Source: a virus
Strand: one strand, 5' to 3'
Length of the DNA stretch: 64,000 bases
IMG/VR virus record: IMGVR_UViG_3300022555_000009
Of the stretch, positions 2,793-57,209 are shown one piece after another. Below the pieces are notes generated by a model. The model was not told where the DNA came from. It made no database searches and saw only the letters and a list, made by a program, of their open reading frames with translations. The position numbers were made by a program, and so were the translations under genes. Every line of letters starts with the position of its first letter. Position 1 is the stretch's first letter.

Positions 2793-5033
2793 GTGCAGCT
2801 ACATTCTGCAGACAAGAATACTGTTCAGACCAATGTTGGTAACTCCCGCGAGTTCACCATCAAGGCGTCTGGTAAGGCGTTCGAGATTCTGTCCGCCAAT
2901 CTGTATAAGGATAAGATTGGCGCCCCGATCCGGGAGCTAGCCTGCAACGCTCTCGACGCGCACGCGATGGCGAAGAACAAGGATCCCATCGTCGTTCATC
3001 TTCCCACTACGTTTGAGCCCTACTTCAGCGTTGAGGACAAGGGCACCGGTATGACTCCTGATCAAATCGAGGACCTATACACTTCGTACTTTTCTTCTTC
3101 CAAGGAGCACAGCAACAACCAGATCGGCGCTCTTGGCCTCGGTTCGAAGTCTCCTTTCGCCTACACCGATACGTTCTCTGTGGACTCGGTCTGCGAGGGC
3201 GTGCATACTTCCTATAGTGCCGTTATCGCAAAGAACGGCACTCCTACAATCATGACTCTGAATTCAAAGCCGAGTGATGCTCACCCCGGCGTGAAGATTA
3301 CTTTTCCTGTCAAGGAGCAGGACTTCCGCACTTTCGTGAATCGCGCTGTGCACATTTTCTGGGCTTTTGACAAGAAGCCTACGTTCATCGGCGCAGTCAA
3401 GACTTACGAGGAGTATGTTAGGTCCGACAAGTCCTCCACCATCTACGAGGGCCGGGGCTGGAAGTTCTACAAGGAGTACCCCTCTTGGTGGAACGGTACT
3501 TCGAATTCGCTCATTAAAATGGGCAATATCCTGTACCCATTCAACCCTCCAGGCGACATCAGAAGTAAGCTCGCGACCAATTATGGTCTGTACCTAGACA
3601 ACAAGTTCATCATTGAGATGAAACTCGGGGAGTGCGATATCGCTCCATCCCGCGAGGAGCTCTCCTACGATGAACTTACCGTCTCTAACATCGAGAGGCG
3701 CCTTCAGATCATCAATGCTGACTTCGATGAGAAGCTTAGGAAGACCTTGGACGAAAGCCCCTCAGAGTGGGTTGCTGCACAGAAAGCTTTCGAGTTTTAC
3801 AACTCGTTCGGCTCCAGAAACTCGTATAAAGATAAAATAGTCACTTATCCTTTCACTTACAAAGGAGCTAATTACAAGTACGGCGAGGCCTTCAAGGTAG
3901 CTTTCCCAGAGAGCTATACTCAGATTACTCCTTTTAGGAGAAGGAGAGTGGCGACTTCTCTCACTGCAATAGCTATCGTCGCCGGTCAAGTTGAACTGAA
4001 GTTGGGCTCAAACGTATTCATTATTCTCGAGCCCAGGAAAGTCATTGACTGGAACTCTGCGAATACTAGGAAGAGGGTCGGCAAGTATATTACTAACAAC
4101 AAAGTATCTACTTCCGGGTTGGTCATTTACGCGATGAGGAGTCTCCCTGAGTCTCTGCGAAAGCAGCTTCATGGAATTCCTGTCGTCAATTACGATGACC
4201 TCCCGAAGAATCCCAACAACAATTACGTTTCAAAGAAATTGAGGGCGTCGAGTACCAAAATAAGGGTGACGAATTGGGAATCGGGACCGGGACCGATTTG
4301 CGAAGAGGAGTCCTCTGAGCTCAGTCAAGACAAAAAGATTTTCATCATCTCCAAGGCCAAGAAGTACTATGTTGATTGGGAAGCCCTCGAGGATGCGAAT
4401 GCCAATGCCGATCTCAAAACGTGTCAGTACCTCCGAAAACCTCTGAATGCGTTCGGAATTAGTTTGGCAAAGGTCTATGTTGTGACCAGCCTTGAGTTTA
4501 AAAGGACTCGATTGGATCTTAGTACCGATTGGATTTCCTTCAAGGATTTCATCGCTCAGAATCTTAAGGTTCTTGATGATAAGTATAAAGAATCTTACAT
4601 AGCGCGGACTAAAAATCATATCCTTAATAATTTCTACAGCCGCCTTTTGAATCAGAAAGACTCCGCTATACAATATATTAAAAGGGGTGTTGGACCCGAC
4701 AGCGACTTCACCAAGAAGTACGATCAGATTGCGCTTTTGGGAAAGATCGACAAGATGACAGAGCAGTATGGTGAACTAAAGAAATGTGTTACCGCGCATA
4801 ACTTGGTCCCTTATACTATCACCTCCAACACAATCGTCGAAAAGGATACCATAGGAATGTATGCTAAGTACCCTATGCTGAAAGTTATGCTGGAAGTTAT
4901 CCGGTACGAGAGCGATCTGGGGAGTGGGACATTACAGGTCCTTGTGACGGAAAAGAATACTTCAAATATAAAATATCTTGATCTAGTCGTTGACTATATT
5001 AAAATGGTAGACACTCGGGTCGTATCCGAGTGA
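2793..5033 (+). CDS. rIIA: rIIA-like protein (GHKL/Hsp90-like N-terminal ATPase domain)
   Basis: LYKDKIGAPIRELACNALDAH, DKGTG, IGALGLGSKSPFAY, PSREELSYD; adjacent to rIIB. Confidence 0.9.
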   Translation: MQLHSADKNTVQTNVGNSREFTIKASGKAFEILSANLYKDKIGAPIRELACNALDAHAMAKNKDPIVVHLPTTFEPYFSVEDKGTGMTPDQIEDLYTSYFSSSKEHSNNQIGALGLGSKSPFAYTDTFSVDSVCEGVHTSYSAVIAKNGTPTIMTLNSKPSDAHPGVKITFPVKEQDFRTFVNRAVHIFWAFDKKPTFIGAVKTYEEYVRSDKSSTIYEGRGWKFYKEYPSWWNGTSNSLIKMGNILYPFNPPGDIRSKLATNYGLYLDNKFIIEMKLGECDIAPSREELSYDELTVSNIERRLQIINADFDEKLRKTLDESPSEWVAAQKAFEFYNSFGSRNSYKDKIVTYPFTYKGANYKYGEAFKVAFPESYTQITPFRRRRVATSLTAIAIVAGQVELKLGSNVFIILEPRKVIDWNSANTRKRVGKYITNNKVSTSGLVIYAMRSLPESLRKQLHGIPVVNYDDLPKNPNNNYVSKKLRASSTKIRVTNWESGPGPICEEESSELSQDKKIFIISKAKKYYVDWEALEDANANADLKTCQYLRKPLNAFGISLAKVYVVTSLEFKRTRLDLSTDWISFKDFIAQNLKVLDDKYKESYIARTKNHILNNFYSRLLNQKDSAIQYIKRGVGPDSDFTKKYDQIALLGKIDKMTEQYGELKKCVTAHNLVPYTITSNTIVEKDTIGMYAKYPMLKVMLEVIRYESDLGSGTLQVLVTEKNTSNIKYLDLVVDYIKMVDTRVVSE

Positions 5034-7458: not shown

Positions 7459-7489
7459 AAGAATAGGGGGTTCATCAGAACCCCCTCCT

Positions 7490-7560
7490 GTATCCATAGC
7501 CTAGTGGCAAGGTGGGGATCTCTAAAATCCCACACGCGGGTCCGATTCCCGCTGGATGCA
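7490..7560 (+). tRNA. tRNA with CTA anticodon (amber suppressor)
   Basis: Acceptor gtatcca/tggatgc with A73; D arm gcct/aggt; perfect anticodon stem gggat/atccc with loop CT-CTA-AA; T arm gcggg-tccgatt-cccgc. Confidence 0.85.
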
Positions 7561-7927
7561 TATGAAGTATATTTTTGATTTGTATAAGATAGATAAAAGG
7601 TGGTTCTTTGATGACCCGTCGAAAAATATTTATCAAGAAGAATTTATTGACGGCGTACCAGAAATTATAGAAGCATATGTAGGCGATAAAGCAGTCACCG
7701 CTAAAATCATTCTAAATGATTCTGTTCCCGACGATGCCTCTGGAGAAATTCAGTACCACAGCCTTCATTATGCGGGATCTCTAGGGGAATGGACTAGATA
7801 TGAGGATACGGATTTCGATGGCAGCGAGGAGATAGTTTATGGTGAAGGTTGGTTCTGTCCTACCTTCTGGAAGTACTTTTCAAAACCCGCGCCTGAAGTC
7901 CTTTATTTCAGAATCATGGCGATGTAA
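7556..7927 (+). CDS. DUF6717-like phage protein
   Basis: WFFDD...EEFIDG...GWFCP..WKYF..APEVLY motif pattern. Confidence 0.65.
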   Translation: MHMKYIFDLYKIDKRWFFDDPSKNIYQEEFIDGVPEIIEAYVGDKAVTAKIILNDSVPDDASGEIQYHSLHYAGSLGEWTRYEDTDFDGSEEIVYGEGWFCPTFWKYFSKPAPEVLYFRIMAM

Positions 7928-11102: not shown

Positions 11103-11139
11103 TTGCCGCCGACGTTTAATGCGGTCTTATATTATATAT
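11103..11139 (+). promoter_or_regulatory. Putative early promoter
   Basis: TTGCCG-N19-TATATTATATA. Confidence 0.7.
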
Positions 11140-11179
11140 GTAAGCACGGAAAACGAAAGAAATACGAGCGGAGGACCGA

Positions 11180-11653
11180 ATGGATATGAAGATGGCGAGG
11201 AAGCTGGCCGAGGTTCTGGACGATGTCTCCGGTAACGGTGATCTTGGCAGGGCCGAAGCGGCCGCAGTCCTCCTTCTTATTGAGGTCAAGCGTCTTGAGA
11301 GGGAACTCGCTCAGAAGAACGATCGCATCGAGGACCTTTCAGAAAAGGTTGCTCGCGCCCGATACGCAATAAACGCAATAAAGGTTGCGGTTCCAGTTCG
11401 AACTCCCGAGCAGTGTGCACTCGATTTCAGTAAGCAGGTCTATGAGGATCTTTGCAGGCGATACCCTTCCGGCACCGTACCCATGGAGGTTTTCAATCGT
11501 CTCGAGAACCAGATTCGTCCGTACATGCGTTCAAAGGGTCTCCGGGTCATCTATCGCGGTCCGCGCAAATCAAATAACGTCCATTCGTGGTCGAAGCCTT
11601 CAATGACTAGGCGCTGTGATGCGACTGGCGCGAGCATCGTTTACTCGAAGTAA
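11180..11653 (+). CDS. Hypothetical early protein
   Basis: GGAGG RBS; coiled coil followed by LRVIYRGPR motif. Confidence 0.7.
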   Translation: MDMKMARKLAEVLDDVSGNGDLGRAEAAAVLLLIEVKRLERELAQKNDRIEDLSEKVARARYAINAIKVAVPVRTPEQCALDFSKQVYEDLCRRYPSGTVPMEVFNRLENQIRPYMRSKGLRVIYRGPRKSNNVHSWSKPSMTRRCDATGASIVYSK

Positions 11654-11664
11654 GGGAGAGATAC

Positions 11665-11865
11665 GTGCTGACTAAGCTTGACAAGCGCACTGGACGCAGA
11701 GTTGTCATCGAGGATGGAAGTGTCTTCAGTATGACTCGCATAACTTGTTTCTGCGGCTCCGAGTTCGATCTTATTTCCGAGTGTTCTTGTCCCCGGTGCG
11801 GGGAACGGTTTAATATCTTCGGACAGAATCTCAAGTCCGATGAAGACTACGATGAGGACTACTAA
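11665..11865 (+). CDS. Small Zn-ribbon protein
   Basis: CFCG...CPRCGERFNIFGQNL. Confidence 0.7.
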   Translation: MLTKLDKRTGRRVVIEDGSVFSMTRITCFCGSEFDLISECSCPRCGERFNIFGQNLKSDEDYDEDY

Positions 11866-12506
11866 GATGAAGGAAGAGAAAGACATCACGATATGGCGGG
11901 CGGCTCTGGAGCTTATCTCTTTCTTGTTTTGTGTGCTCGTCATCTTCTCATTCGCACTATTTAGGTAATAGAAAAATTGTCTATCACAGTGACGCTCCGA
12001 CCGTGCAGGAAGGAGATGATGGTTTCCCCATAAGGAAGGCCCAGCCAAAGTAGCTCTTCTGCAAAATGGTTCACCGTGATAGATTGTTTTAAGTTGGAGA
12101 TTTTACATCGAAGCCTAGGCTAACGCCCATCAGGCAGAGCGATCTGATTTTGACGAATCGACGTCAAGAGCTTTGGTGCGAAATCTTCAAACTAGGTCCC
12201 CGTTACACTTGCTGTGGTTACACTTGCTGTGTGGCGGAGAGCAGGACTAATCACCCTGGGGCCTGGGAGGCTGATTACCTCATGAAGCGGTCTTGGTTTC
12301 CCACTTCCCGTTCTGCGCAGAAGAATGGAAAGTGGCTGAAAATACTTTGAGGCTTAGTAATCTTGTTGTGTATATCGGTACCGTAGTGCACGACCGGGTG
12401 ATAGGTGGAAATGCTGAGAAGTCGACCAGCCTAAGCCTCTGAGTATTTTCAAAGGGTAAGACGTAAAGGAGGTATCCGGGTTCAAATCCCGGGGAATAAC
12501 ACATAG

Positions 12507-12590
12507 GGGAGATTAGTGTAAGGGCAGCACGGAGGATTATGGCCTGTCTAGACGTCCACCTCCAGAGCCGGTTCGAATCCGGCACTCCCA
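12507..12590 (+). ncRNA. tRNA-like fold with a 23-nt anticodon-loop region
   Basis: gggag/ctccc acceptor; D arm gtgt/gcac; stem ggagg/cctcc enclosing 23 nt; T arm gccgg-ttcgaat-ccggc. Confidence 0.6.
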
Positions 12591-12686
12591 CATTAGACGG
12601 GTCTTATTTTCTATCCCTGGCAGGAAAAGGAGATGAGTATCGTCCTACTTTAGTTCAGAGACATGCCAGTGTTGAGAACGGAGCAG

Positions 12687-12757
12687 ATTCGCTTATTGTT
12701 AATGGTAGCAAACCTCCGGTTCAGGGGGTAGAGCAGGTTCGATTCCTGCAGCGAATA
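12687..12757 (+). ncRNA. tRNA-like fold with aberrant anticodon loop
   Basis: Perfect acceptor attcgct/agcgaat; D arm ttgt/gcaa; acctcc-GGTTCA-gggggt arm; T arm gcagg-ttcgatt-cctgc. Confidence 0.65.
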
Positions 12758-12769
12758 GAGATTACTTAC

Positions 12770-13006
12770 ATGACTGAGAAAGAAAAGAATATTCAGTTGA
12801 AAAAAATCCGCGCTAAGATAGCCAATCTTACCGAGGCGTATGAGAAGTCTGTAGGCTCCTTAGAAGATCAGCTTTATACCCTCGAGGCTGTGGTGACCGA
12901 AGAAGAAAAAGTCAGGATAGAACTTGCTGGGGTCGCCGAGGCCTACTATGATGAAGTGAAGTGGCGAAAGCACGTCGAAGAAAACCAGATTCATAATCTT
13001 TGTTAA
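12770..13006 (+). CDS. Hypothetical coiled-coil protein (start ATG 12770)
   Basis: Upstream portion of the track ORF overlaps RNA genes. Confidence 0.6.
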   Translation: MTEKEKNIQLKKIRAKIANLTEAYEKSVGSLEDQLYTLEAVVTEEEKVRIELAGVAEAYYDEVKWRKHVEENQIHNLC

Positions 13007-13016
13007 CATTATTTTT

Positions 13017-13090
13017 GGCCTTATAGTATAACTGGATAGTACGGCAGTTTCCTAAACTGTCAAGTGGGGGTTCGAGTCCTCTTAGGGCTA
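13017..13090 (+). tRNA. tRNA-Arg(CCT)
   Basis: Acceptor ggcctta/tagggct; stem gcagt/actgt with loop TT-CCT-AA; GTTCGAGTC. Confidence 0.88.
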
Positions 13091-13092
13091 TT

Positions 13093-13494
13093 TTGGGGGA
13101 TTTGATGACAAGCGAGAGAGAACAATATCTTGTCGAAATGTACTCTAAGCTTTTTCCTCCTATGCCAAATATCCGACGGTTTGGTTTCGAGCATGGCGAC
13201 GGCTGGTTTGGACTTATCGAAGGTCTCTGTAAGGAGATCGATTCCTTGGGCGATATCGGCTTCGAATTCGACCAGATCAAGGAAAAGTTCGGCTCCTTAC
13301 GCATCTACTACCACGGCGTAAATGATATGCTCAGAAGCCGACTCGTGGATTACCTAATTGATAAGTATGAGAACATGAGCAAGTCAACCTGCGAGGAATG
13401 TGGTGATGTTGCCCAGATAGAAAATGTCAACGGTTGGCTTACGACATTGTGTCCGTGTCATCTTGAATCGTTCAAGAGGGAGAGCCTCAAATGA
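13093..13494 (+). CDS. Conserved phage protein with C-terminal Zn ribbon
   Basis: GDGWF..L, QIKEKFGSLRIY, CEECG...TLC..H. Confidence 0.75.
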   Translation: MGDLMTSEREQYLVEMYSKLFPPMPNIRRFGFEHGDGWFGLIEGLCKEIDSLGDIGFEFDQIKEKFGSLRIYYHGVNDMLRSRLVDYLIDKYENMSKSTCEECGDVAQIENVNGWLTTLCPCHLESFKRESLK

Positions 13495-13817: not shown

Positions 13818-13991
13818 TCAAAGCTACTATCATTTTCGACAATAAGATGGCCTCGAGCATGGGGCATTATTACTTAACTGCAGGTCAATATGAAAATCTA
13901 GACCTACTATAAATAAAGGATTTTCAGGATGGCAACCTTAACTCGCCAGAGTTCTTTTCCAGTAAGACTTAAACCGTGTCTAGGTTCTAAA

Positions 13992-14027
13992 AATCCCGCT
14001 TCCCCTAACACGAGGCGGGATTTTTTC
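13992..14027 (+). terminator. Intrinsic terminator
   Basis: aatcccgcttc...gaggcgggatttttt. Confidence 0.75.
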
Positions 14028-14053
14028 TTTATACTAATTCAAAGAGGGTGTAA

Positions 14054-17269: not shown

Positions 17270-18072
17270 TGGGAGCTTCCTACAGCTACAGTAAGATAGG
17301 AACTTTTGAGTCTTGCCCTCTTGCCTATGATCTGCAGTACGTCAGAAAAATTAAGTTGCTAAAAGACTTCGACTACGACGTCATTAAGGGAATAATCTTT
17401 CATCATTACGCAGAAGTATACAAGGGAAATTCTAGGGAGGCAGCAGATAAAGCTTTCCATGAACCAGAAGAAGTAAAGCCAGAGTTTCTTCAAATGATAA
17501 CTCCAGTACAGCACAAGGCTATACAAGAAGCATTCGCCTCTTTTAATCACTTTTATGATACCTTCTTAAAGTCCCGAGAAAACTTTACCATGAAGGAATT
17601 TAGAATTTCTAGTAAGACTCCAAAAGGTCATACCTTCACGGGCTTCTTAGACCTAGTGGTCTTGCAGCCTAAGGAATACTGGATTATAGATTATAAGACT
17701 CCGAAGGGGTCAAAAGCTTCCTTTTATTCAGGCCAGCTGTACACGTATATCCATTACATTATGGAGAAGTATAAGATACCAGTAGAAGAAGTGCGAGCTG
17801 GAGTATTCTTTCCTTTCGCTACGGATGTCAAAAGTGATGATGATAGATTTAAAGAAATAAAAGTCACAGGCAAAAAGATAGAGGAGCAGATAACCAAATT
17901 AGACGACACCATTGCTTTATTGGAGTCGCCCGATAGATCCAAGGAAGCTAATATGCAATGGCTTTGTAACTACTGCCAGTATAAAGGTGTCCAAGAATTG
18001 TGTCCTCTATCAGTAATCGCAGGCGCCAGGCCTGTGAAGCACTATGACGAAATTACAAAAACTCTAACCTGA
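17269..18072 (+). CDS. PD-(D/E)xK nuclease, Cas4/RecB-like with Fe-S type Cys
   Basis: SYSKI..F..CP, G..FH, GFLD..IIDYKT, QL..Y, CNYC..C. Confidence 0.85.
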   Translation: MGASYSYSKIGTFESCPLAYDLQYVRKIKLLKDFDYDVIKGIIFHHYAEVYKGNSREAADKAFHEPEEVKPEFLQMITPVQHKAIQEAFASFNHFYDTFLKSRENFTMKEFRISSKTPKGHTFTGFLDLVVLQPKEYWIIDYKTPKGSKASFYSGQLYTYIHYIMEKYKIPVEEVRAGVFFPFATDVKSDDDRFKEIKVTGKKIEEQITKLDDTIALLESPDRSKEANMQWLCNYCQYKGVQELCPLSVIAGARPVKHYDEITKTLT

Positions 18073-25232: not shown

Positions 25233-25269
25233 TTGCCACCGAAGGACTTCGTAAACTTATATTATATAT
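25233..25269 (+). promoter_or_regulatory. Putative early promoter
   Basis: TTGCCA-N19-TATATTATATA. Confidence 0.7.
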
Positions 25270-25285
25270 GTAAGGGGGTCAGGAA

Positions 25286-26944: not shown

Positions 26945-27832
26945 ATGTCAGATGTTCTTAATCGTAGACTGAGGGGTTCAGATCATAGTCTGGACCCCTA
27001 TTTCTCTGTAAAAAGAGAGAGGCTACTTACTTCCAGTGGTGAGTATGTGGGATTCGATGCCCTCATCAATTCAAAACTCAACAAGACGCTCAGTGTCGTG
27101 GGAGAATCCTATCACTTCGTTCCTCACAAAACGGCATCTCAGACGGTGCATGATTTTCTCGACGCGACAAAACTTAACTACGTGATTAAGTTTATTAGAA
27201 CCGCCGCCAACGGAGCTCAGTACTTCGAGGTCATCGAATTCCCAGATCTGAAGTTCGAGGTTCTACCGAAGGGAAAGGATACGTCCTTAGACGCTGACAA
27301 GCATAAGCCAGACGAGTACGTGCCCACCATCACTGTTCGTAGCTCCTACGACAAGTCCTACCCGACTCAGTTTGCCTACGGCGCTTTCCGCTACATCTGC
27401 ATCAACGGGGTAATGGTTGGAATCGATATCAGTAAGCTTTCGATTCGTCATAATCAGAAACTCGTGGTCGGAGACGTCCAGAATAGCTTCGAGGAGAACC
27501 TCGAGAAGTCTATCGAAAGCTTGAAGGTTAGAATTCCTGAGCTCAACGAACTTGAGGGTCAGGAATTCGCTGAAGAGTTCCTTTTCAACAGGACCCTTCC
27601 TGCTAAGTTCAAGAAGGATATTGTAGAGATGGCGGGACCTGCAATCTCTAGCTACTACGACACTATGACTTCACCTTCTGGTCGCACGAAGCAGGTTCTG
27701 AAGTCCATCGATACGGACATGTCTGCTTACGCAGTCATGAATATCATCACCAGCCTTGTTTCCCATAAGGCTAAGAACGCTGCAAAGCAGCAGGGAATGT
27801 ATAATATGGTGGCTAAAGTCTTTGATCTTTAA
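26945..27832 (+). CDS. DUF932/DUF945-like protein
   Basis: LSVVG..Y..V.H, SYD, AFRYICINGV, IRH. Confidence 0.7.
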   Translation: MSDVLNRRLRGSDHSLDPYFSVKRERLLTSSGEYVGFDALINSKLNKTLSVVGESYHFVPHKTASQTVHDFLDATKLNYVIKFIRTAANGAQYFEVIEFPDLKFEVLPKGKDTSLDADKHKPDEYVPTITVRSSYDKSYPTQFAYGAFRYICINGVMVGIDISKLSIRHNQKLVVGDVQNSFEENLEKSIESLKVRIPELNELEGQEFAEEFLFNRTLPAKFKKDIVEMAGPAISSYYDTMTSPSGRTKQVLKSIDTDMSAYAVMNIITSLVSHKAKNAAKQQGMYNMVAKVFDL

Positions 27833-48066: not shown

Positions 48067-48104
48067 TTGCCACCGAGCACACAGCAAATGCTTATATTAT
48101 ATAC
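48067..48104 (+). promoter_or_regulatory. Putative early promoter
   Basis: TTGCCA-N20-TATATTATATA. Confidence 0.7.
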
Positions 48105-48139
48105 GTAAGCAAGAAACGAAGAACGCAAGGAGCCAAGAA

Positions 48140-56132: not shown

Positions 56133-57209
56133 ATGGAAATCGTTGCCGATAGATTCTTTGATCAATCTAAATTCGCCAGTACTATTGCCATAGTAAGAAT
56201 GAACCTCGAACAATTCCTCGCAAATAATATCTTGCGAGAGGATGGTTCGAGGATTTTTTATGCATCGAAGTCCTGGGCTTTTCGACAGAGAATCAATCTG
56301 CTGAATATGAACTCTAGTCCTGACTACTCCTCCCTGAATTTTCCTTTTTGTGCTTATTACCGGAATGGTAATTGGACAGTAGGTCCTGAAGTAGCGCCAG
56401 GCGTACCGGCAGCAGATGCTGCTATACTGGGCACAACCGATCTAGGACCTAATGTACGATTCTTCAATGCTCAGTTCCCTTTCAGCGTCGTCTTCTTTTT
56501 TAACAGAGAAGACGACGCTCAATTAGCCTACGAGGCCTTAATGTGGATTAAGCATCCTAGGCCTATTCAAACAACAGCCCCTGGCTTGGTGTATAAGGAC
56601 ACAGCTATTGATATACCTATACGATATAAGATAGAAGATATTCAATTTGCTCCCGAGTATAAAGAAAAAAATTGGCTGGAAATGAATCGCGTATTCCCTA
56701 TTGAGGTCTCCTTGAAGGTAGACTCAGTAATAATACGAGCTCAGCCTCAGACTCCGAATGCTTTATATCCTACAGACGACGATACTATTTACATTACGAA
56801 GAAGGTCATTTTAGATTTCTTGTCCTTCAAAAACGATATGCTAGTGGATTCGGATGGGGTACAAGAGATTCTTTTGGGCTCTTTCATTCCAGACCCCGAT
56901 TTAAATGGAACCTTCACAGCAGGAGTCTCAACAGACACAAGCGTAACTCTACATTGGACCTATAATCCTCTGTGTACGGCCCTGTATGAGCCGAATGTGA
57001 CTATTCTTTGCAATAATGGTACTTCTGTGCAAGTTCCAAAGACAGCGCTGACTGCAACCATAAGTGGATTGAATTTAGGCTCCACATATACATTTAAAAT
57101 TCAATTTTTTGCTTTATCAGGAGCCATAAATCAATACTCAGTAACTGCGCTCACAACTGGTAGTCAATCCAATCTCAATCTCAAGGGAATGATAGGATAC
57201 ACCTGGTAA
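56133..57209 (+). CDS. Tail terminator/completion-like protein with C-terminal FN3-like domain
   Basis: Directly upstream of the sheath; SVTLHW..ATISGLNLGSTYTFKI FN3 signature. Confidence 0.55.
   Translation: MEIVADRFFDQSKFASTIAIVRMNLEQFLANNILREDGSRIFYASKSWAFRQRINLLNMNSSPDYSSLNFPFCAYYRNGNWTVGPEVAPGVPAADAAILGTTDLGPNVRFFNAQFPFSVVFFFNREDDAQLAYEALMWIKHPRPIQTTAPGLVYKDTAIDIPIRYKIEDIQFAPEYKEKNWLEMNRVFPIEVSLKVDSVIIRAQPQTPNALYPTDDDTIYITKKVILDFLSFKNDMLVDSDGVQEILLGSFIPDPDLNGTFTAGVSTDTSVTLHWTYNPLCTALYEPNVTILCNNGTSVQVPKTALTATISGLNLGSTYTFKIQFFALSGAINQYSVTALTTGSQSNLNLKGMIGYTW

Follow-up and report, generated by a model that had tools for sequence, protein, structure and literature searches.

An island of separately folding RNA modules and tRNA look-alikes in a phage genome, possibly an array of processed small RNAs

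The small stable RNAs RNAC (species 1, rnaC) and RNAD (species 2, rnaD) of bacteriophage T4, which are encoded within the T4 tRNA cluster (NC_000866, 70908-71171), date from the 1970s. Their roles are still unexplained (PMC3014915, PMC9697503). GOLLD (RF01998) and ROOL (RF03087), densely structured phage and prophage RNAs of several hundred nucleotides (nt), are often encoded near tRNA islands, and the GOLLD linker sometimes carries tRNAs (PMC12286853). Among the Y RNAs of bacteria and phages, which go with Ro60/Rsr and for which YrlA (RF02553) provides the model used here, several can be processed from one precursor (PMC4201824). Here we describe a non-coding locus on the + strand of a 64,000-nt stretch of viral DNA (the window), which corresponds to bases 82701-146700 of the 170,592-bp phage record IMGVR_UViG_3300022555_000009 from IMG/VR. 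The RNA locus lies between a small open reading frame (ORF) that ends at 11968 and a 78-aa gene that starts at 12770. It resembles rnaC and rnaD as a set of small structured non-coding RNAs in one transcription unit with a phage tRNA gene, GOLLD and ROOL in its several hundred nt of dense structure, its phage setting and the tRNA gene alongside, and the Y RNAs in its ~100-nt units with a long end stem and its tRNA-like domains. We give about an even chance to the explanation that it encodes an array of separately folding small RNAs together with two tRNA mimics, which host RNases would release from a polycistronic transcript and which would act as protein-binding RNAs.

The 5' part of the locus is composed of the following elements, lettered as in an earlier note made from the letters of this DNA; z-scores are relative to shuffled sequences and MFE stands for minimum free energy.

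11973-12090, + strand: module (a), a bulged rod whose closing arms are inverted and 20 nt long; MFE -38.1 kcal/mol, z -3.5 on the + strand and -2.6 on the - strand
12092-12193, + strand: module (b), a four-way junction with a closing stem of 4+9+9 bp containing G:U pairs, and three hairpins; z -4.5 on the + strand and -2.2 on the - strand
12194-12281, + strand: segment (c), weakly structured; z -1.35
12276-12474, + strand: an irregular helix (12276-12299 / 12453-12474) closing a three-way junction that contains (d) and (e)
12301-12335, + strand: module (d), a 13-bp hairpin; z -4.1 on the + strand and -3.7 on the - strand, pair probability 0.97
12337-12451, + strand: module (e), a closing stem of 11+9 bp around two inner arms; MFE -45.9 kcal/mol, z -6.0 on the + strand and -5.0 on the - strand

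Taken as a whole, the region 11975-12500 (526 nt) folds on the + strand with -199.5 kcal/mol, clearly better than its shuffled versions (mean -161.3 kcal/mol; z -5.37), while the - strand reaches -161 kcal/mol (z -3.4) and three coding controls of the same length gave z-scores of +1.2, -0.5 and -2.5. The advantage of the + strand amounts to 38 kcal/mol and comes from G:U pairs; it is also found in each of the modules (a), (b), (d) and (e), all of which have a better z-score on the + strand than on the - strand. Such a steady advantage argues for an RNA rather than a DNA palindrome, which agrees with the earlier interpretation of the GU-rich pairing as a mark of a + strand RNA. A feature that works at the level of DNA (MITE-like inverted-repeat insertions, where MITE denotes a miniature inverted-repeat transposable element, an iteron replication origin, or protein-binding palindromes) would account for three units of ~100-118 bp bounded by inverted repeats of 20-21 nt, for the single 15-bp direct repeat in (c), and for the fact that the minus-strand folds also beat shuffles. 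We nonetheless regard this explanation as very unlikely, given the strand difference just described (in (b), z -4.5 versus -2.2), the presence of each unit in a single copy in the phage, and the scan of the arm sequences against 185,579 genomes, which returned chance matches only. There is also no GC-skew turn at the locus, and a replication origin was rejected on this basis.

The modules are also clustered. When the entire 170.6-kb genome was searched for long-range stems (17 or more pairs around 30-130 nt), the + strand yielded 39. By score, the stem that closes (e) comes 1st, that of (b) 2nd and that of (a) about 8th, and the three lie together within 480 nt. Further inverted repeats of the long-range kind, in which arms of 16-30 nt flank 56-123 nt, were noticed at genome positions 27554-27692 and 17429-17587, both of which are outside the window and overlap long ORFs, and at 56370-56461 and 3596-3684 of the window.

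The closing stems of (a), (b) and (e) share a common design, with 20-22 bp interrupted by one or two mismatches and enclosing 78, 55 and 73 nt, respectively. Pair probabilities within the modules are 0.8-0.99, with each module closing on itself; in (b), where one of the hairpins is capped by a GCGA tetraloop, they reach 0.99. The long bulged rod (a), the long GU-bearing stem of (b) around three hairpins (22 bp in our fold), the hairpin (d) and the closing stem of (e) with its inner arms were all described in the earlier note and are all recovered here. For unit (c) only a part of the description stands: the 15-nt tandem duplication is exact (12202-12231, in a hairpin tip; Tandem Repeats Finder score 60, two copies, 100% match), but the proposed stem AGGTCCC/GGGGCCT has an ensemble probability of 0.06, with the helix 12200-12208 / 12229-12237 predicted at 0.96. 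The kissing loops proposed for (c) rest on one of several competing folds, and we could not substantiate them, as the loop-loop complementarity over the MFE loops is at the level of chance (one pair of 6-mers, equalled by 34 of 500 shuffles). The palindromic hairpin tips were considered as dimerisation sites and dismissed, the number of 8-nt palindromes being close to that expected by chance (hand count).

In the ensemble no helix ties (a), (b) or (c) to the remainder, so that the layout is one of beads on a string. This bears on the two possibilities raised in the earlier note, a new class of large RNA or a processed array of small RNAs. A single ornate RNA of ~520-790 nt, maybe self-assembling, with the tRNA-like folds as its parts or embedded in it, would fit the size of the locus and its position in a phage beside tRNA genes, as well as the z-score of -5.4 for the entire 526 nt; moreover, two predicted helices, 12254-12261 / 12487-12494 (probability 0.54) and 12276-12299 / 12453-12474, span ~200-240 nt. 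The latter is well supported in the ensemble of 11975-12600 (probability 0.95 for the pair 12276:12474) and ends 1 nt before the element (f) described below. However, (a), (b) and (c) are self-contained, with no core junction or long-range helix to join them, the loop-loop complementarity is at chance, and the models of GOLLD, ROOL, OLE and raiA find no match at E<=10. A single large RNA therefore appears unlikely to us, and since each module closes on its own stem of 20-22 bp while (a), (b) and (c) take part in no long-range helix, we favour the processed array.

Downstream of the modules, the locus continues with elements related to tRNA:

12476-12492, + strand: element (f), a lone tRNA-type T arm, CCGGG-UUCAAAU-CCCGG; 11.1 bits with the T-arm part of a T4 rnaC model
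12507-12590, + strand: tRNA look-alike 1; Rfam tRNA model 31.9 bits, E-value 2e-4; cloverleaf in the MFE fold
12591-12686, + strand: spacer between the look-alikes, apparently the least constrained part; z -1.8
12687-12757, + strand: tRNA look-alike 2; Rfam tRNA model 36.9 bits, E-value 8e-6; cloverleaf in the MFE fold, z -4.0

The two tRNA-like folds reported earlier are thus confirmed, both by scores that exceed the cut-off of the Rfam tRNA family (RF00005; 29 bits) with permissive filters, the default filters missing both, and by cloverleaves predicted de novo. With canonical tRNAs they share the acceptor stem, the D and T arms, U8, the GG of the D loop and the T loop, and they differ from them in the anticodon arm. 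In look-alike 1 the D arm, the T arm and the elbow residues are intact and the acceptor stem has one bulged base, while the anticodon arm comprises 33 nt versus the standard 17 (about 16-19 extra nt). Look-alike 2 has a perfect 7-bp acceptor stem, D and T arms, and an anticodon arm of 18 nt (6 bp with a 6-nt loop). Neither possesses the standard anticodon stem of 5 bp with a 7-nt loop (U33, purine 37), and ARAGORN rejects both as tRNAs; as modelled, their anticodon arms are unable to decode. A relationship to the tRNAs of the phage itself as paralogs was also considered and rejected, because no close copy of either was found among its 26 tRNAs.

These elements have to be weighed against a different explanation, in which the hairpins act in cis only, as processing or stabilising structures keeping the mRNA upstream separate from the genes downstream, and the tRNA-like folds are decaying tRNA genes, with no action in trans. 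RNase III-type sites lie between the early genes of phage T7, and stems of 20-22 bp, such as those that close (a), (b) and (e), have the length of RNase III substrates. The decay of tRNA genes is suggested by a graded series that runs from the intact tRNA-Arg downstream of the locus to look-alike 2 (anticodon arm longer by one base), look-alike 1 (an insertion and a bulge in the acceptor stem) and the bare T arm (f); the exact duplication in (c) indicates that insertions are tolerated, and our searches found no conserved relatives. On the other hand, one processing site would suffice, yet three elaborate modules stand in tandem, and (b) and (e) are also well folded inside their closing stems, with G:U pairs effective on the + strand only. 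Free decay would also predict something other than look-alikes that keep U8, the D-loop GG, the T loop and paired acceptor stems, and the GC content of 49% at the locus, as compared with 42% genome-wide, speaks against it as well. We consider this explanation possible but doubtful. The processed array is also consistent with the only two single-nucleotide polymorphisms (SNPs) in 2573 nt of one strain copy (L040), 12645 C>G and 12670 T>G, since both are confined to the unstructured 96-nt spacer.

Comparison with described RNA families placed the locus in none of them. In agreement with the novelty suggested earlier, Rfam 15 contains no family that matches 11975-12500 on either strand at E<=10, and the models of GOLLD, ROOL, OLE and raiA were likewise negative on both strands of 11850-13150; no match at E<=10 was obtained with the models of group I and group II introns, self-cleaving ribozymes, 6S or signal recognition particle (SRP) RNA, and a reverse transcriptase gene is absent from the phage. 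Thus the earlier comparison with GOLLD and ROOL holds for scale and context, but neither model matches; these RNAs possess one multi-junction core and belong to families of homologs, whereas the present locus is arranged as beads on a string and has no homolog family. A transfer-messenger RNA (tmRNA) was dismissed because neither ARAGORN nor Rfam detected one, none of the three + frames contains a tag-like frame, and acceptor pairing is absent. An SRP-like motif in (a) turned out to be a resemblance by eye without an Rfam match. The handle for Ro60 (a hairpin with ACNGCAA) is absent from the locus by eye and present upstream in the phage genome. The YrlA model has no match in the locus and six weak matches elsewhere in the genome (best 19.6 bits versus a cut-off of 69), the phage has neither a TROVE/Ro60 nor an RtcB gene, and the 5' motif of Y RNAs, GNCGAAN0-1G, has no exact occurrence at the locus, the sequence in (b) being AUCGAAG.

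The closest analogy is with T4 rnaC, whose fold consists of an acceptor-like stem, a long rod, a hairpin and the T arm CCGGGUUCGAAUCCCGG, one base off that of (f). A covariance model of rnaC built from five family members, in which 19 of 46 pairs covary, was run with filters off and matched only the three T arms of the locus (11.1, 9.9 and 8.0 bits). Since the match is restricted to the T arms, the locus is not a member of the T4 rnaC family, but analogous to it in context and partly in design. In T4 rnaC a 7-bp acceptor-like stem lies next to the T arm, whereas (f) has no convincing acceptor. Compared with rnaC and rnaD, the present locus has more and larger modules, each with a two-turn closing stem. 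The rnaC family also has invariant complementary loops, UUGACG in the rod and CGUCAA in the hairpin, which suggests, from the sequences, a loop-loop contact. The same two hexamers occur at the present locus as the two strands of the hairpin 12150-12167 in (b); the chance of this is ~0.2 and it is no evidence of kinship.

The earlier note had found no credible ORF, and this holds for 11969-12769 with one ambiguous part. The longest ORF on the + strand of 11969-12538 has 66 aa and a TTG start (at 12150; genetic code 11), and the gene callers applied to seven metagenome copies left 11866-12538 empty. We scored codon usage after training on the long genes of the phage, with genes in frame averaging +4.6 and open off-frames -3.0 per 40 codons; the 66-aa ORF scored -4.1, which is typical of non-coding sequence. 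The ambiguous part is 12539-12769, where the frame of the 78-aa gene remains open for 77 codons upstream of its start, through both tRNA look-alikes, with a score of -0.14 that rises to +5.2 at 12770. The frame 12539-13006 as a whole is called as a 155-aa protein by the ENA and Logan gene callers and as 78 aa by IMG. Its ATG is directly preceded by a Shine-Dalgarno (SD)-like GGAGG, both being inside the anticodon arm of look-alike 1. We read 12539-12769 as non-coding because of the jump of the score at 12770 and the two matches to the tRNA model in this stretch, and the 155-aa call is probably an annotation artefact.

Hidden coding, either as a recoded or frameshifted protein or as a genuine 155-aa product, would draw on the open frame with its SD-like sequence, the ENA and Logan calls and the ambiguous score, as well as on a phage tRNA with the anticodon CUA. 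We find it extremely improbable. Reading of the locus with code 4 (TGA=W) or with TAG=Q opens nothing longer than 97 aa, and ORFs of up to 1746 aa are read through elsewhere in the phage under code 11. The score jump and the two tandem tRNA-model matches inside the frame also speak against it, and both SNPs in the spacer would entail radical substitutions, of a Pro and of a Ser by Arg (codons read by eye).

Searches for relatives of the locus at the DNA level were negative. BLASTN with 11900-12800 found none among the 50,697 phages of INPHARED; nhmmer gave no match at 25 loci that share the 133-aa neighbour protein, and these loci show neither synteny nor tRNAs. With rIIB as an anchor, one relative of 39% identity was found, on a 6-kb contig, and the 157-aa neighbour protein returned no relatives; at a relative of 42% identity (P0010) the neighbouring sequence is all coding. 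Three patterns from (b), (e) and (f) that mix exact and purine/pyrimidine (RY) positions had 0 matches in IMG/VR. JGI metagenomes contained 16 matches to an 18-mer and GTDB genomes 26 matches to a 17-mer, with no extended similarity, and a 22-nt match in a Bdellovibrionales metagenome-assembled genome lies within apparently ordinary sequence. The phage lineage appears isolated, and the RNA island is known from this one lineage, as a purely thermodynamic prediction.

Several observations weigh against a processed array of structured RNAs. All other copies of the locus (from seven assemblies) are 99.8-100% identical, the strain copies being the same or different at 2 SNPs and thus too alike for covariation to show, and the next relatives of the neighbouring proteins, among 5.8 billion protein clusters, have at most 47% identity. 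Unit (c) and the spacer 12591-12686 fold no better than chance. In a coarse scan of the genome with unaligned windows of 120 nt the locus is not among the 40 most extreme (best z -2.6), which we attribute to windows out of register with the modules. The lone T arm of the earlier note is indeed present at 12476-12492, but its ensemble probability is only ~0.19, in an energy model that leaves out tertiary contacts, and it lacks a convincing acceptor partner: the best candidates for pairing with 12493-12499 are rich in G:U or mismatched, namely UUGUUUU at 12084 (7 of 7 pairs, including three G:U) and UGGUUUC at 12294 (6 of 7), and forcing the latter pairing costs 17 kcal/mol. A search of the phage genes revealed neither an RNase III nor an RtcB or TROVE/Ro60. 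Finally, the open frame that runs through both look-alikes and its ambiguous codon usage have to be counted here as well.

The genomic neighborhood suggests how the island may be expressed. The phage genome has direct terminal repeats, uses the standard code (code 11), and encodes rIIA/rIIB, an intein-bearing terminase and a family A polymerase. Its 26 tRNAs (predicted by ARAGORN) are mostly located in an island 10-24 kb upstream of the RNA locus. Three features delimit or accompany the putative transcription unit:

11103-11147, + strand: phage promoter-like module with a recurrent motif, the probable driver of the unit that contains the RNA island
13016-13091, + strand: canonical tRNA-Arg(CCT), found by ARAGORN and Rfam (54.8 bits), in the same transcription unit
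13989-14030, + strand: intrinsic terminator-like hairpin followed by a T run, from an inverted-repeat search and the sequence; the probable end of the unit

The earlier proposal of a promoter near 11103 is supported by the repetition of the module. The motif TATATTATATAyGTAAGCAC occurs at 2581-2600, 11128-11147 and 48093-48112, with a weaker copy at 25258-25277 (0.02 expected by chance), and ~100 nt around the copy at 11128 resemble five other sites in the genome. The motif sits in a module of ~70-100 nt, with similar sites at 63.3 kb and 70.4 kb of the genome, and the module is probably a marker of one temporal class of transcription units. No terminator was detected between the promoter module and 13989, the hairpin 13989-14030 itself being overlooked by the consensus terminator scan owing to its 9-nt loop; together with the promoter module this indicates that the RNA island is probably co-transcribed with its flanking genes, namely three ORFs before it and, after it, the 78-aa gene, tRNA-Arg(CCT) and two others. 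The terminator-like hairpin is strong and usable from the opposite strand too. The ORF directly upstream of the island (11867-11968) would encode a 33-aa peptide, possibly a membrane peptide with a hydrophobic C-terminal half; its codon score is non-coding-like and the metagenome gene callers skip it, so its reality is uncertain. The tRNA with the anticodon CUA (7489-7561) is well formed (56 bits) and lies 31 nt past a Pth2-type gene; the genome itself is read normally with code 11.

Taking as a basis the folds with their strand bias and clustering, and the absence of any credible ORF, we infer the following course of transcription, processing and function for the processed array. Transcription would start at the module near 11128 and proceed through the three small ORFs (11180-11653, 11665-11865 and 11867-11968), then through ~800 nt of non-coding RNA, the 78-aa gene, tRNA-Arg(CCT) and two more genes, to end at the terminator near 14030. 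Host enzymes that process tRNA and rRNA may then cut the transcript into separate small stable RNAs, with RNase P cleaving each tRNA look-alike at its 5' end, RNase III acting within the two-turn closing stems, and RNase E within the A/U-rich linkers. The T4 tRNA operon yields RNAC and RNAD by the same general route. The products would bind proteins rather than mRNAs; host factors recognising tRNA elbows or long RNA duplexes might be their targets, with the RNAs in the role of decoys or scaffolds. This is the weakest step of the proposal.

If the locus were to encode one RNA after all, the very few classes of giant ornate RNAs would be joined by a new one, which would be a third kind of RNA of phage tRNA islands beside GOLLD and ROOL; a higher-order particle, or tRNA mimics as cargo, might then be envisaged. 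Irrespective of that, the locus is a large example, unrelated in sequence, of the unexplained stable RNAs in phage tRNA clusters, and its design is unusually regular, with three modules closed by two-turn stems that adjoin tRNA mimics with intact elbows and anticodon arms predicted not to decode. If the modules, as the processed array implies, are cut free and bind factors of the host, the phage would gain a route to tamper with the machinery or the defences that recognise tRNA or duplex RNA.

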